64,000 nt of DNA from Escherichia coli (lineage in GTDB: Bacteria > Pseudomonadota > Gammaproteobacteria > Enterobacterales > Enterobacteriaceae), in the NCBI RefSeq assembly GCF_003334785.1, contig NZ_QOWV01000011.1. One strand, written 5' to 3'. Each line of letters starts with the position of its first letter. Position 1 is the first letter of the stretch. The notes beneath the pieces were generated by a model. That model saw only the letters and a program-made list of their open reading frames with translations. It was not told the origin of the DNA and searched no databases. Shown piece by piece: positions 4,141 to 49,086 of this stretch. The translations under genes and the position numbers were made by a program.

Positions 4141-4745
4141 TGGCGCTGCATGACGAAAACGTCGTCTGGCATAGCCATCCGGTCACTGTGCAACAACGCG
4201 AGCTACACCACGGTCATCGTGGTGTAGTGCTGTGGTTTACCGGCCTCTCCGGGTCCGGTAAATCAACGGTCGCCGGGGCGCTGGAGGAGGCGTTACATAA
4301 ACTCGGCGTCAGTACGTATCTGCTGGATGGCGATAATGTTCGCCACGGATTATGCAGCGATCTCGGTTTTAGCGATGCCGATCGTAAAGAGAATATCCGT
4401 CGCGTCGGTGAAGTGGCGAATTTGATGGTTGAAGCCGGACTGGTGGTGCTGACCGCATTTATCTCGCCACACCGCGCCGAACGCCAGATGGTTCGTGAAC
4501 GCGTAGGAGAAGGGCGCTTTATCGAAGTGTTTGTCGATACGCCGCTGGCGATTTGCGAAGCCCGCGATCCAAAAGGCTTATATAAGAAAGCGCGTGCCGG
4601 TGAACTGCGCTACTTTACGGGAATAGATTCCGTTTACGAAGCGCCTGAATCGGCAGAAATTCATCTCAATGGTGAACAATTAGTAACAAATTTGGTACAG
4701 CAATTATTAGATCTGTTGAGACAGAACGATATTATCAGATCCTGA
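4140..4745 (+). CDS. cysC: Adenylylsulfate (APS) kinase, 201 aa
   Basis: P-loop GLSGSGKST; start overlaps the cysN stop (TAATG), suggesting translational coupling. Confidence 0.96.
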
Positions 4746-4794
4746 GACACCACCGGGTTTCCATGCCCGGTTCGTCAAAGTAACAGGATCAAAT

Positions 4795-5118
4795 ATGCGT
4801 AATAGCCATAACATTACACTAACAAATAACGACAGCCTTACTGAGGATGAAGAAACCACATGGTCACTGCCTGGTGCCGTGGTCGGTTTTATCTCCTGGT
4901 TATTTGCGCTGGCGATGCCGATGTTGATTTATGGCTCTAACACGCTGTTCTTCTTTATCTACACCTGGCCTTTCTTTCTTGCGCTGATGCCCGTCGCGGT
5001 AGTGGTGGGGATTGCGCTGCATTCATTGATGGACGGAAAGCTACGCTACAGTATTGTTTTCACCCTGGTGACAGTAGGCATTATGTTTGGCGCACTGTTT
5101 ATGTGGCTACTGGGCTAA
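4795..5118 (+). CDS. ygbE: Small inner-membrane protein of unknown function (DUF3561-like), 107 aa
   Basis: Three predicted hydrophobic helices; conserved position between cysC and ftsB. Confidence 0.85.
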   Translation: MRNSHNITLTNNDSLTEDEETTWSLPGAVVGFISWLFALAMPMLIYGSNTLFFFIYTWPFFLALMPVAVVVGIALHSLMDGKLRYSIVFTLVTVGIMFGALFMWLLG

Positions 5119-5311
5119 TTTGTACTTTCCCGTCTCCTCTGTTCATAATTCAAACCGTAACTAATAATGAGATTATGTTCTGCACGCCCTGGGTATACGT
5201 AACAATGGACAAATGTGGTACATTTGCCCGCGTTGTCGCGGTATCCCCAACAGAGGATGTAGAGTCGTCTTCGGATGCATGGGATGATGATGCCGTTTTT
5301 CAGGGGGCAGG

Positions 5312-5623
5312 ATGGGTAAACTAACGCTGCTGTTGCTGGCTATTCTGGTCTGGCTACAGTATTCGCTGTGGTTCGGTAAGAACGGTATACATGACTATAC
5401 CCGCGTCAATGATGATGTGGCGGCACAGCAAGCTACAAACGCGAAACTTAAAGCGCGAAACGATCAACTTTTTGCCGAAATTGACGATCTCAATGGCGGC
5501 CAGGAGGCGCTCGAAGAGCGTGCGCGTAATGAACTCAGCATGACCAGGCCGGGCGAAACTTTTTATCGTCTGGTGCCTGACGCGTCGAAGCGCGCACAGT
5601 CTGCGGGGCAAAACAATCGATAA
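5312..5623 (+). CDS. ftsB: Cell division protein FtsB, 103 aa
   Basis: N-terminal TM helix plus coiled coil ([25 protein letters not shown]...). Confidence 0.95.
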
Positions 5624-27697: not shown

Positions 27698-28159
27698 ATG
27701 ACTATTTGGGAAATAAGCGAGAAAGCCGATTACATCGCACAGCGGCATCGTCGCCTACAGGACCAGTGGCACATCTACTGCAATTCGCTGGTTCAGGGGA
27801 TCACGTTATCGAAAGCGCGCCTGCATCACGCCATGAGCTGCGCGCCGGACAAAGAACTCTGTTTCGTCCTTTTTGAACATTTTCGCATTTACGTCACCCT
27901 GGCGGATGGCTTTAACAGCCACACCATCGAGTATTACGTCGAAACAAAAGATGGCGAAGACAAACAGCGGATTGCGCAGGCGCAACTGAGCATTGACGGC
28001 ATGATTGATGGCAAGGTCAACATCCGCGATCGCGAACAGGTTCTGGAACACTATCTCGAAAAAATCGCTGGCGTTTACGACAGCTTATACACCGCTATTG
28101 AAAACAATGTGCCGGTGAATTTAAGCCAACTGGTAAAGGGACAAAGCCCGGCAGCATGA
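27698..28159 (+). CDS. hycA: Formate hydrogenlyase regulatory protein HycA, 153 aa
   Basis: Translation MTIWEISEKADYIAQRHRRLQDQWHIYCNSL... Confidence 0.93.
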   Translation: MTIWEISEKADYIAQRHRRLQDQWHIYCNSLVQGITLSKARLHHAMSCAPDKELCFVLFEHFRIYVTLADGFNSHTIEYYVETKDGEDKQRIAQAQLSIDGMIDGKVNIRDREQVLEHYLEKIAGVYDSLYTAIENNVPVNLSQLVKGQSPAA

Positions 28160-43087: not shown

Positions 43088-44221
43088 CTACATCGGCAAT
43101 GTTTTCAACAATCCAAATGCCTCTTTCATCCGATCCTCACTGACCACAAAGGCGCGAAGCTGGTCAGCATCGTCAACGCCGCGCGCCACCATTCCCTGGC
43201 GTTCGGTATTAATTTGCCAGCGTAAATCCTGACGCTGGGTTTCGCCTGCCAGATGCAGCGGTAATTCCGGCGTTTTGATTTTCACCAGCATCGCCGGGAG
43301 TTTCAGCGGCGTGTTATTGCCGAGAAGATTTTTTGCCAGCACCATCGCGCTAAGTTGAATCGGCTGGAGGAACGGCAATACCTGACCGTTAATTTCCGCG
43401 CAATCGCCCAGCGCGTAAATATCGGTATTACTGGTTTGCAGATAACTATCGACGCAAACGCCGCGATTAATCGTCAGCCCGGCGCGTCGTGCCAGGGCGG
43501 TTTCCGGGCGCAGTCCGGTGGCGGCAATTACCGCATCCACTTCGATGCTACGCTGGCGGTCCAGCGTTGCCAGAATGCCAGAATCCGTTTTTTCCAGCCC
43601 CTGCAACTGAGATTTCAACAGCAGATGAACACCCATCTCCGTCAACCGATGCTGCAAGCGGCTGCTTACTTCCGGTGGCATTAACGACGCCAGAATACTG
43701 GCAGCGTTGTCGATTAGCGTGACCGCTTTGCCTGCACGACAAAAATCCATCGCCAGTTCGCTACCAATCAAACCACCGCCAACAATCAACACGCGTCGGG
43801 CATCCCGCAGTTGCGTTTCACAGGCGCGATACTCTTGCTGACTATTTAACGTCAGCATTAACTCACGCCCAGGCACAGGCGGGACAAAGGCGCTGGCACC
43901 GGTTGCCAGCACTAACTTGTCGTATTGCCACTGATTATTCTGGCTTTTCACCACATGGGCTTCGGCATCGATATCCGTCACCCAGGTGTGCGGAAACAGG
44001 CGCAGATTAAACTGCTCGGCAAATTCACCCGCCGTCTGGCGGGTAAGGTCGTCGGCACGTTGCCCCTGACTGATAACATGGCTGAGGTCAGGTTTGTTGT
44101 ACTCATCTATGCTGTCGGCGGCAATCAAGGTTAATGGAATAGTGGCGTCCTGTTTGCGAATATTTTTCACCAGTTGTCGGGCGGCGAAGCCCGAACCAAT
44201 GATCACAATGCCGTTGCTCAT
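43088..44221 (-). CDS. norW: NADH:flavorubredoxin oxidoreductase, 377 aa
   Basis: FAD/NAD Rossmann motifs GSGFAA and GGGLIG. Confidence 0.93.
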
Positions 44222-45657
44222 TTTGCCTCCGATGCCAGTTCGTCAAAGACGTCTTTGCCGAGGGAGCATTCCGGGCACAGGAAGTTATCCGGGACTTCAC
44301 TCCACGGCGTTCCTGGTGCAACGTCCTGCATTGGCTCGCCTTTTGCCGGATCGTAAATCCACCGGCAGACGCTGCACTGCATCCGTGGGCCGAGGTCAGC
44401 CGTCGTGGCGGCAGAGGTTTCTTCTTTAACTACCGTATTCACCGTGCTCTGCGGCAGCGGCGCGAGCGCCCACTGACGGGCGATTTCGCGACCGTGTTCA
44501 CGGCATAACTCCAGAGCGTCCTGGTCTGGTCGCCATTTGGCTTTCAGGCTGAGCGACATTTCGAAACCCGCATCCTGCAGGCGCGTGGAAAGACGATCCA
44601 CCGCACCGCCGCTCCAGCCGTGAGAGCCGAAAGCACTGGCGCGTTTGTTACGGAAGCGTAAACCAGTCATCTCCTCCACCAGCCCGGCGATTTTCGGCAT
44701 CATCACGTTATTCATCGTCGAAGTGCCGACCAGCACGCCTTTTGAGCGGAAGACATTGGTCAGGATTTCGTTTTTATCGCTTCGGGCGACGTTGAAAATT
44801 TTCACCGCCACGCGTGGGTCGGTTTCCGCAATCCCCTGGGCGATAGCGTCAGCCATCATGCGGGTGTTATTCGACATGGTGTCGTAGAAAATGGTGATTC
44901 TGTCTTCCTGATAATCAGCCGCCCATTTCAGGTACAGCTCGACAATTTGCGTCGGGTTATCGCGCCAGACCACGCCGTGGGAGGTCGCTATCATATCGAC
45001 TGGTAAGTTAAAGCCCAGGATCTCGGTAATTTTCGGCGTTACCAGGCGGCTGAACGGCGTCAGGATATTGGCGTAGTAACGCTGGCACTGCTCGAAAAGC
45101 TCCGTCTGATCCACTTCATCGTTGAACAGATGCTCGTCACAGTAGTGCTGACCGAAAGCATCGTTACTGAACAGCACCGCGTCGCCTGTCAGGTAAGTCA
45201 TCATGCTGTCCGGCCAGTGCAGCATTGGTGTTTCGACAAAAATGAGCTGTTTGCCGTTGCCGATATCCAGCGTGTCGCCAGTTTTCACCACATTAAAATT
45301 CCACTCCGGATGATGGTGATGACCATTTATCGAGTCGATAGCGTTGGCAGTACAGTAGATCGGCGTATCGGGAATTTGTGCCATCAGTTCGGTCAGCGCC
45401 CCAGCGTGGTCCTCTTCTGCATGGTTAATCACGATGTAATCGATATCCGCCAGATCGATTTCATTACGCAGGTTCTGCACAAATTCGCGGCTGAATTTAT
45501 GGTCGACGGTGTCGATCAGCACGTTTTTTTCTTCGCGGATGAGGTAGCTATTGTAGCTGCTGCCGCGCAGCGTTTTATATTCCGTGCCGTGAAAATCACG
45601 CACTTCCCAGTCACGTTGACCAACCCAATGAATGTTATTTTTCACCACAATAGACAT
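44218..45657 (-). CDS. norV: Anaerobic nitric oxide reductase flavorubredoxin, 479 aa
   Basis: Metallo-beta-lactamase, flavodoxin and C-terminal rubredoxin (CSVCRW...CPEC) domains. Confidence 0.94.
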
Positions 45658-45703
45658 AGCAACCTCAATTTATTCAGCGTGTTCTAAAAAGATGTCTTGC
45701 TAA

Positions 45704-45719
45704 TTGCAGATTGCGTGCC
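45704..45719 (-). promoter_or_regulatory. sigma54 promoter for norVW: TGGCACGCAATCTGCA on the minus strand
   Basis: GG-N10-GC with TGGCAC and CTGCA elements, about 45 nt upstream of the norV start. Confidence 0.75.
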
Positions 45720-45775
45720 AGTTTTTTATCTGATTGTTTTTACTCTATAAATAAAATTATGCCCATTAATGAGTA

Positions 45776-45831
45776 GTCAAAATGACTATCAATCAAATGG
45801 TCGATATGACAATATCTATAGTCAAATTGAC
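45776..45831. promoter_or_regulatory. Three NorR enhancer sites, GT-N7-AC inverted repeats (GTCAAAATGAC, GTCGATATGAC, GTCAAATTGAC)
   Basis: Three evenly spaced GT-N7-AC palindromes at 45776, 45800 and 45821, upstream of norV and immediately upstream of the norR start. Confidence 0.75.
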
Positions 45832-45843
45832 AGTGAGGCAAAG

Positions 45844-47358
45844 ATGAGTTTTTCCGTTGATGTGCTGGCGAATATCGCCATCGAATTGCAGCGTGGGATT
45901 GGTCACCAGGATCGTTTTCAGCGCCTGATCACCACGCTACGTCAGGTGCTGGAGTGCGATGCGTCTGCGTTGCTACGTTACGATTCGCGGCAGTTTATTC
46001 CGCTTGCCATCGACGGTCTGGCAAAGGATGTACTCGGTAGACGCTTTGCGCTGGAAGGGCATCCACGGCTGGAAGCGATTGCCCGCGCCGGGGATGTGGT
46101 GCGCTTTCCCGCAGACAGCGAATTGCCCGATCCCTATGACGGTTTGATTCCTGGGCAGGAGAGTCTGAAGGTTCACGCCTGCGTTGGTCTGCCATTGTTT
46201 GCCGGGCAAAACCTGATCGGCGCACTGACGCTCGACGGGATGCAGCCCGATCAGTTCGATGTTTTCAGCGACGAAGAGCTACGGCTGATTGCTGCGCTGG
46301 CGGCGGGAGCGTTAAGCAATGCGTTGCTGATTGAACAACTGGAAAGCCAGAATATGCTGCCAGGCGATGCCACGCCGTTTGAAGCGGTGAAACAGACGCA
46401 GATGATTGGCTTGTCCCCTGGCATGACGCAACTGAAAAAAGAGATTGAGATTGTGGCGGCGTCCGATCTCAACGTCCTGATCAGCGGTGAGACTGGAACC
46501 GGTAAGGAGCTGGTGGCGAAAGCGATTCATGAAGCCTCGCCACGGGCGGTGAATCCGCTGGTCTATCTCAACTGTGCTGCACTGCCGGAAAGTGTGGCGG
46601 AAAGTGAGTTGTTCGGGCATGTGAAAGGAGCGTTTACTGGCGCTATCAGTAATCGCAGCGGGAAGTTTGAAATGGCGGATAACGGCACGCTGTTTCTGGA
46701 TGAGATCGGCGAGTTGTCGTTGGCATTGCAGGCCAAGCTGCTGAGGGTGTTGCAGTATGGCGATATTCAGCGCGTTGGCGATGACCGTTGTTTGCGGGTC
46801 GATGTGCGCGTGCTGGCGGCGACTAACCGCGATTTACGCGAAGAGGTGCTGGCAGGGCGATTCCGCGCCGATTTGTTTCATCGCCTGAGCGTGTTTCCAC
46901 TTTCGGTGCCGCCGCTGCGTGAGCGGGGCGATGATGTCATTCTGCTGGCGGGGTATTTCTGCGAGCAGTGTCGTTTGCGGCAGGGGCTCTCCCGCGTGGT
47001 ATTAAGTGCCGGAGCGCGAAATTTACTGCAACACTACAGTTTTCCGGGAAACGTGCGCGAACTGGAACATGCTATTCATCGGGCGGTAGTTCTGGCGAGA
47101 GCCACCCGCAGCGGCGATGAAGTGATTCTTGAGGCGCAACATTTTGCTTTTCCTGAGGTGACGTTGCCGACGCCAGAAGTGGCGGCGGTGCCCGTTGTTA
47201 AGCAAAACCTGCGTGAAGCGACAGAAGCGTTCCAGCGTGAAACTATTCGTCAGGCACTGGCACAAAATCATCACAACTGGGCTGCCTGCGCGCGGATGCT
47301 GGAAACCGACGTCGCCAACCTGCATCGGCTGGCGAAACGTCTGGGATTGAAGGATTAA
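45844..47358 (+). CDS. norR: NO-responsive sigma54-dependent activator NorR, 504 aa
   Basis: Start at the ATG giving [18 protein letters not shown] (ORF track starts 25 codons upstream, across the NorR sites); GAF, AAA+ (GETGTGKE) and HTH domains. Confidence 0.92.
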
Positions 47359-48320
47359 ATAATCCCGGCCTGATAGAAATCCTGCAGGTTTATTGCGCCG
47401 GTGAGTTTGCCGTTTTCATCCACCACCGGTGCGGCAGTGATTTTGCGCTTCATCAGGATCTCTTTGGCGTCGATGGCGCGACTTTGCGATTGCAACGTGG
47501 TGCCGCCGACCGTCATCGCTTCATTGACTGGCGTGGTGAGTGCGCCGCCGCCAACCAGCCAGCGACGTAAATCGCCGTCGGTAAAGACGCCTTGTACCTG
47601 TTGTTGAGCGTCACATACCGCCACCAGCCCCAGACCGGTGCGGCTGAGTTCCAGCATCGCATCCATCACGCTGGCGGTTAACGCCACCTGTGGGATGGCA
47701 TCGTCACGGCGCATCAGATGATGCACTTTATTCAGCAAGCGAGCGCCCAGTGCCCCGGCTGGGTGGGAGCGGGCAAAATCTTCTTCATTAAATCCGCGCG
47801 CCTGCATGACCGCCATCGCCAGCGCGTCACCCATCATCAGGGTATTGACGGTGCTGGAGGTCGGCGCAAGGTGCATCGGGCAGGCTTCGCGTTCTACGGA
47901 GATATCCAGCACCGCTTTTGCCGCCAGGCCCAGCGGTGACGTCGGTTTGCCGGTCATCGCCAGCAGCGCGATAGATTTATCTTCCAGACGCGGAATAATC
48001 AGATCCAGTTCCTTCGCGCCACCGGAGTAAGAGATAAACAGCATCACATCGCGGCTTTCGATCATCCCCAGATCGCCGTGCAGCGCTTCTGCCGGATGGA
48101 CAAAAAAAGCCGGAGTGCCGGTACTGGCAAGCGTTGCGGCGATTTTCTTACCAATGTGGCCCGATTTGCCAATTCCCGAAACCACCACTTTGCCTTCACA
48201 GTGCAGGATGATATTGGCGGCGCGAACAAAATCATCGCCCAGACGTTCCGGTAAACGGCTTGCTTCCTGCAACTCCAGCATTAACGTCTGACGTCCCGCG
48301 TTCAGTAGTGCTTCACTCAT
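47355..48320 (-). CDS. gutQ: D-arabinose 5-phosphate isomerase (SIS plus tandem CBS), 321 aa
   Basis: SIS-domain motif [14 protein letters not shown]; stop codon overlaps the norR stop. Confidence 0.93.
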
Positions 48321-49086
48321 TGCTCTCTCCGGTTATGATCACATCGATCCCTTTCTCTTCCAGCGCCTGACGAAACGCCGGATCGATACCTGCGTCGGTA
48401 ATCAGCTTATCGACGCTTTCAAGACTGCAAACTACGTTGGGGCTTTTACGGCCAAACTTTGATGAGTCCGCCATCAAAATCACTTCGCGCGCGGCATTGC
48501 ACATTGCCTTACTGACGGTATAAACCTCGTTAAAGGTGGTTACGCCCGCATTGAGATCGATGCCGTCGGTGCCCATAAACAATTTATCGAAGGTGAAATG
48601 CTCGAAGGCATTCTCTGCCAGTTGCCCGTGAAATGAGGCCGATTTTTTGCGAAACGTTCCGCCTGGCATCAGGATAGTTTGTTCGTTATCCAGTTCGGAT
48701 AGCGCATTGACGATATGCAGGCTGTTGGTCATCACCGTGATGTTATTAAAGCGCGAGAGCAGGGGAACCATCTGCAAAACGGTACTGCCAGCATCAAGAA
48801 TGATCGAATCGCCATCATGGATAAAACTAACGGCAGCTTCTGCAATCAGCTCTTTCTTGTGGGTGTTGATGAGTGTTTTATGATCGATAGGCGGATCGGA
48901 TTCCTCTTTATTCAACACCACTCCGCCATAAGTACGAATGACGGTTCCGGCATGTTCCAGAATGACCAGATCTTTGCGAATGGTTGTGCCTGTGGTGTCA
49001 AAGTATTGCGCCAATTCTTCAACCGAGCATTTACCCTGCTTTTGCAGATACTCCAGAATGGCGGCCTGACGCTGACGAGGTTTCAT
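48313..49086 (-). CDS. srlR: Glucitol operon DeoR-family repressor, 257 aa
   Basis: DeoR HTH; overlaps gutQ start. Confidence 0.93.

Follow-up and report, generated by a model that had tools for sequence, protein, structure and literature searches.

We found that norR in this stretch of E. coli DNA starts at the ATG at position 45844 and encodes a protein of 504 amino acids, and that the 529-codon frame beginning 75 nt further upstream is an artefact of calling the longest ORF. Because translation of norR begins at ATG 45844, with a GAGG Shine-Dalgarno (SD) sequence in front of it, the three NorR enhancers covered by the longer frame are intergenic. The DNA between the start codons of norV and norR is almost certainly the canonical divergent norR/norVW control region of E. 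coli, which is already known and is the same as in K-12. The value of the case lies in annotation quality control, since taking the longest ORF can conceal an entire enhancer that experiments have defined, as happened with the ORF529 entry of K-12. Nothing new is learned from the region about NO sensing or sigma54 activation.

Positions refer to the window, by which we mean the whole stretch of DNA that was analysed (64,000 nt). The gap between the two genes (45658-45843; 186 bp) runs from the norV start codon, which reads CAT at 45655-45657 on the minus strand, to ATG 45844. It has no differences from K-12 MG1655 (186/186 bp), and a 901-bp query (45300-46200) had a match of 95% identity or more in each of the 5,426 complete genomes of E. 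coli (5,426/5,426). To assess conservation we used 80 loci, one per enterobacterial species, with genera such as Escherichia, Klebsiella, Leminorella and Xenorhabdus. The architecture of the control region as a whole is kept across the enteric genera represented by these loci, and the gap measures 179-192 bp among enteric loci, most often 186-187. The initial annotation had read the region as the norR-norV control region with a sigma54 promoter and three GT-N7-AC sites; the identity to MG1655 and the published primers that map here, which are described below, confirm this. An Rfam scan of 45400-46100 for structured RNA gave no match. The coordinates of all features are collected in Table 1.

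Table 1. Features of the norR-norVW region, in coordinates of the 64-kb window
Feature	Position	Strand	Basis
norW	43088-44221	-	ORF list
norV (flavorubredoxin), 479 aa, target gene of the promoter	44218-45657	-	ORF list; RefSeq annotation of a genome 100% identical over the 901-bp query
norV Shine-Dalgarno GAGG, 5 nt before the ATG	45663-45666	-	anti-SD duplex energy -6.3 kcal/mol
Predicted start of norV transcription, 37 nt before the ATG	~45694	-	computed from -24/-12 spacing
norVW sigma54 promoter CTGGCACGCAATCTGCA	45705-45721 (read from 45721 to 45705)	-	motif scan; identical to the K-12 sigma54 ChIP-seq 17-mer
AT-rich spacer between promoter and enhancers, with a conserved block at 45722-45742	45722-45775	.	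reported IHF binding and bending; alignment of loci
529-aa ORF with ATG start (long norR ORF)	45769-47358	+	ORF list
25-codon 5' extension of the norR ORF, spurious, open by chance in K-12-like strains	45769-45843	+	neither SD nor codon periodicity
NorR site 1, GTCAAAATGAC, centre ~-87 from the predicted norV start	45776-45786	.	published Site1 primer and 21-bp NorR1 oligo
NorR site 2, GTCGATATGAC, centre ~-111	45800-45810	.	published Site2 primer
NorR site 3, GTCAAATTGAC, centre ~-132, ends 12 nt before the norR ATG	45821-45831	.	published Site3 primer
norR Shine-Dalgarno GAGG, 5 nt before ATG 45844	45835-45838	+	duplex energy -6.5 kcal/mol; nearly invariant alignment columns
norR from its true start, 504 aa	45844-47358	+	RefSeq; NF003451; ATG in 80/80 loci
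gutQ	47355-48320	-	ORF list
srlR	48313-49086	-	ORF list

Several lines of evidence place the norR start at 45844. RefSeq/PGAP uses this codon in MG1655 (NP_417189.2) as well as in a genome with a 100% match to the 901-bp query, and none of the records listed has an annotated feature over a 40-mer that spans sites 1 and 2. The NCBIfam equivalog model for NorR, NF003451, matches with 822.5 bits (cut-off 476) and aligns residues 26-528 of the long ORF with profile positions 2-511 of 512. Since the alignment starts there, the NorR family begins at Met 26 of the long ORF. The iron ligands of the NorR GAF domain are R75, D96, D99, C113 and D131 (PMC4601167), and this numbering fits only the short form, counted from the Met at 45844. 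The translation also contains GAFTGA, the sigma54-contact loop of the AAA+ domain, and the 504 residues read from 45844 are identical to MG1655 NorR. The GAGG before this ATG pairs well with the anti-SD sequence, whereas the 20 nt before ATG 45769 yield an energy of +1.6 kcal/mol and show no SD pairing. Finally, the norR ATG is kept in every one of the 80 species loci. The initial annotation had already favoured this start, and had suggested that it be checked by alignment with characterised NorR proteins and by inspection of the ribosome binding site; both checks agree with it, as do the ligand numbering, the conservation and the stop alleles described next.

The 25 codons upstream of the ATG do not behave as coding sequence. 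An in-frame stop interrupts them in 36 of 81 sequences (the 80 species loci and the window), and codon -25 is ATG in only 13 of these sequences and GTG in 5. Entropy at the three codon positions is flat across the 75-nt extension (0.75/0.70/0.69 bit), in contrast to the first 11 real codons (0.27/0.18/0.95). Column entropy is low in the NorR half-sites, at 0.11 bit on average, as against 1.11 bit at positions outside the sites. Given the flat codon-position entropy and these half-site values, conservation in the extension tracks the palindromes and not the reading frame. The true start can therefore be decided by comparison, without experiments: the conserved ATG and SD, the loss of periodicity upstream and the natural stop alleles settle it.

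Such alleles occur within E. coli itself. Codon -17 (45793-45795) is TCA in the window, TAA in the locus that represents the species E. coli in our set (L002) and TAG in E. albertii; besides this TAA, L002 has GTG in place of ATG 45769. Exact 40-mer searches found the TAA allele in at least 616 of the 5,426 complete E. coli genomes, including that of the type strain DSM 30083, and the allele of the window, with TCA and an open frame, in at least 3,757. Because of this TCA/TAA polymorphism, the long norR ORF exists in only part of the species. In public databases the 529-aa form, named "putative ORF 529AA; ORF529 [Escherichia coli K-12]", is found on 48 contigs and the 504-aa form on at least 1,000. 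The longer form is a historical artefact of annotation, by now corrected.

A variant of the longer reading does not compete with the start at 45844 and instead adds a second one. Strains with the open frame, which are K-12-like and include this one, might make a minor 529-aa NorR from AUG 45769 beside the 504-aa protein. In the majority of E. coli, which have C at 45794 (TCA), a small fraction of ribosomes would then start at AUG 45769 and produce a NorR with 25 extra residues on its NO-sensing GAF domain. The leader here is AT-rich and unstructured, and such leaders can allow SD-independent initiation; the frame is open and begins with ATG. In addition, a weak sigma70-like sequence, CTGATT-16-TAAAAT (-10 at 45752-57), would give a transcript with AUG 45769 close to its 5′ end. 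However, there is no SD, and a transcription start downstream of 45769 would leave this AUG off the mRNA. The allele is also not conserved even within E. coli, and so an extended isoform, if there is any, is dispensable. We consider dual initiation very improbable. If it did occur, the 529-aa NorR would be a lineage-specific isoform created by a SNP and translated across its own binding sites.

It is less probable still, to the point of being negligible, that the long ORF is the real gene, so that NorR would have 529 residues from ATG 45769 and the palindromes would be intragenic: the frame is open from that ATG in the window and in MG1655, and the ORF529 entries exist, but the SD energies, the first residue of the NorR model, the missing codon periodicity, the stop alleles within and beyond E. 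coli, the GTG followed by TAA in L002 and the short start taken by RefSeq all speak against it.

With the start at 45844, the three palindromes lie upstream of norR, at 13-68 bp from its start codon. Their centres are spaced 24 and 21 bp apart, and all three fall within 56 bp. The initial annotation had located three GT-N7-AC palindromes in the 25 codons with which the 529-aa ORF begins, and the coordinates bear this out. The bare GT-N7-AC pattern is common, with 197 copies in the 64-kb window (3.1 per kb), and is therefore weak evidence when taken alone. The more specific pattern GTC-N4-TGAC occurs at 13 distinct positions in the 64 kb (18 strand-matches, where 5.96 are expected), and three of these positions are within the 56 bp considered here. 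GTCA-N3-TGAC has 6 matches in the window, versus 0.79 expected. In nearly all of the 80 species loci the sites are located at -68, -44 and -23 from the norR ATG.

These palindromes have been studied experimentally in the identical sequence. The mutagenic primers for Site1, Site2 and Site3 (PMC2831303) map to 45767-45794, 45792-45817 and 45814-45843, and each differs from the window by just two designed changes, GT to GG and AC to CC. Perfect matches to the window were also obtained for that study's 21-bp NorR1 oligo and for its fusion primers, and the 66-bp NorR123 oligo, read by eye, is the reverse complement of 45771-45836. Mutation of any single site abolishes induction of norV-lacZ, enhancer-stimulated ATPase activity and open-complex formation (Tucker et al., NAR 2010, PMC2831303), and NorR forms hexameric rings on the enhancer DNA (PMC2831303). 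The proposal that the palindromes are NorR sites serving norV activation thus agrees with published mutagenesis of the same bases.

A fourth perfect GTCA-N3-TGAC palindrome, GTCACGTTGAC, which the initial annotation had not listed, occurs at 45610-45620, in codons 13-16 of norV and approximately 79 bp downstream of the predicted norV transcription start. We rejected it as a NorR site. It is present in 26 of 79 loci, and approximately 24 are expected from the wobble-base frequencies of the invariant GQRD codons, and so it looks codon-driven. Moreover, the DNA fragment with which full cooperativity was obtained in vitro contains it only in truncated form.

The norV promoter has the core TGGCACGCAATCTGCA, read from 45720 to 45705 on the minus strand. 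Its -24 GG is at 45719/45718 and its -12 GC at 45707/45706, in the correct orientation and close to the gene. TGGCAC-N5-YTGCA has two matches in the 64-kb window, of which the core is one, compared to 0.13 expected. In K-12, a sigma54 ChIP-seq peak upstream of norV, OS25, was assigned the motif CTGGCACGCAATCTGCA with a distance value of 37 (PMC4591121). This is the same 17-mer, and a norV sigma54 promoter on the minus strand had been predicted in the initial annotation. The -24 element TGGCAY is present in all of the loci with enough flanking sequence (79/79), and its distance to the centre of site 1 is 61-66 bp.

The -12 element is more variable. It reads CTGCA, aligned to 45705-45709, in 32 loci from Escherichia, Citrobacter, Salmonella and Kluyvera. 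In 40 loci from Enterobacter, Klebsiella, Kosakonia and others it reads TTGAT, which is without the canonical -12 GC; examples are L036 from Enterobacter hormaechei and L074 from Klebsiella pneumoniae (range L021-L081). The -24 TGGCAC is retained in both groups.

The palindromes and TGGCAC-N5-CTGCA could in principle be chance matches in AT-rich intergenic DNA, without any function, given that the bare GT-N7-AC pattern is as frequent in the window as stated above. By contrast, three tight palindromes within 56 bp that are near-invariant in approximately 80 species while their flanks drift, together with published mutagenesis and footprinting of the same bases and sigma54 ChIP-seq for the promoter, leave this explanation next to no credibility.

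The promoter and the enhancers, as functional elements, are separated by the AT-rich spacer. IHF reportedly binds this spacer in E. coli (PMC2831303, PMC4601167, PMC11334186). In the species alignment the spacer contains a conserved block, TTTTTA..ATTGATTTT. A search of 45721-45775 for the IHF consensus WATCAANNNNTTR, with up to one mismatch allowed, gave no match. In other genera, matches to an IHF consensus of the type AATCAATTAATTA are present in the block that aligns to 45722-45742.

The steps of the switch, up to the expression of norVW, are established in the literature for this sequence (PMC2831303, PMC4601167). According to these studies, RNA polymerase with sigma54 forms a closed complex at the -24/-12 promoter, and three NorR dimers occupy the three inverted repeats at 45776-45831. 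Occupancy of all three sites drives the assembly of a NorR hexamer, and the reported bending of the AT-rich spacer by IHF allows the hexamer to reach the polymerase. Binding of NO to the mononuclear iron in the GAF domain of NorR then relieves the repression of the AAA+ ATPase, the promoter is opened and norVW is turned on.

NorR probably also represses its own gene through the same three sites, which fits both their geometry and the literature. Hutchings et al. reportedly found, in 2002, roughly threefold autorepression of norR in E. coli. Because the enhancers fill the DNA directly before norR, NorR bound to them would have to overlap or block the norR promoter; indeed, with the last site ending so close to the norR ATG, an overlap appears geometrically forced. 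We infer that NorR at the enhancers, with or without NO, would in this way exert negative autoregulation. In genomic SELEX, NorR bound this spacer only, and it was stated that NorR "regulates both norR and norVW" (PMC8249747), as is also stated elsewhere (PMC11334186). The RefSeq product name of MG1655 norR is "dual regulator" (NP_417189.2). The NorR of V. cholerae represses a norR-lacZ fusion, and NO has no part in this repression (PMC3345576).

A scan for a sigma70 promoter of norR gave only one match on the minus strand, which is at chance level, and none that was convincing on the plus strand. A relaxed scan proposed ATGACA-17-GACAGT on the plus strand (45806-45811 and 45829-45834), which occurs in 47 of the 81 sequences. 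We rejected it as the norR promoter since it is made of NorR half-sites, and since its transcript would start approximately 3 nt before the norR ATG and bypass the conserved SD. The pair probably just reflects the TGACA half-sites that form the right halves of sites 2 and 3. For the norR transcription start there is no entry in the Kim 2012 TSS supplements, in both coordinate versions, nor among the Cappable-seq matches listed.

The known system that is most similar is the norR-norVW region of E. coli K-12 itself (PMC2831303 and earlier work by the same groups), which has the same three sites, promoter, start codon and NorR protein. Apart from the unchanged control region, the only differences are four substitutions in NorV (K383E, T417A, Q432R and E472D) and six in NorW relative to MG1655, and the strain is therefore not K-12. 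The NorR/norAB system of Ralstonia eutropha and the NorR-hmp systems of Vibrio and Pseudomonas likewise have a sigma54-dependent NorR activator, tandem GT-N7-AC sites for activation upstream and a divergent norR (PMC1274295), and the V. cholerae protein shows the NO-independent self-repression mentioned above. However, the Ralstonia, Vibrio and Pseudomonas systems differ in their targets, which are norAB, hmp, nnrS and hcp, and in site number and extended consensus; that of Vibrio NorR2 is GATGT-N7-ACATC. The authors of PMC2831303 drew a further comparison with TyrR, three dimers of which bind to three adjacent TyrR boxes and assemble into a single hexamer, as those of NorR do on their dyad sites. 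The hexamer of TyrR acts as a repressor at sigma70 promoters, whereas that of NorR is an ATP-driven sigma54 activator.

We also observed some features elsewhere in the window. A second sigma54-type match, TGGCACATCTACTGCA, is located at 27767-27782 on the plus strand. It is in sense orientation inside the hycA ORF (27698-28159), approximately 120 bp from the known hycA promoter, and is absent from the main text of the K-12 sigma54 ChIP-seq paper. Downstream of norR, the convergent gutQ overlaps norR by 4 bp, through the stop codons of the two genes (47355-47358). The locus of strain 720632 is 1 bp shorter and otherwise identical across the norR-norV features described here; its gutQ is flagged as a pseudogene by RefSeq (4561-5520 of locus L001), and the gutQ of the window is intact, with 321 codons for amino acids.
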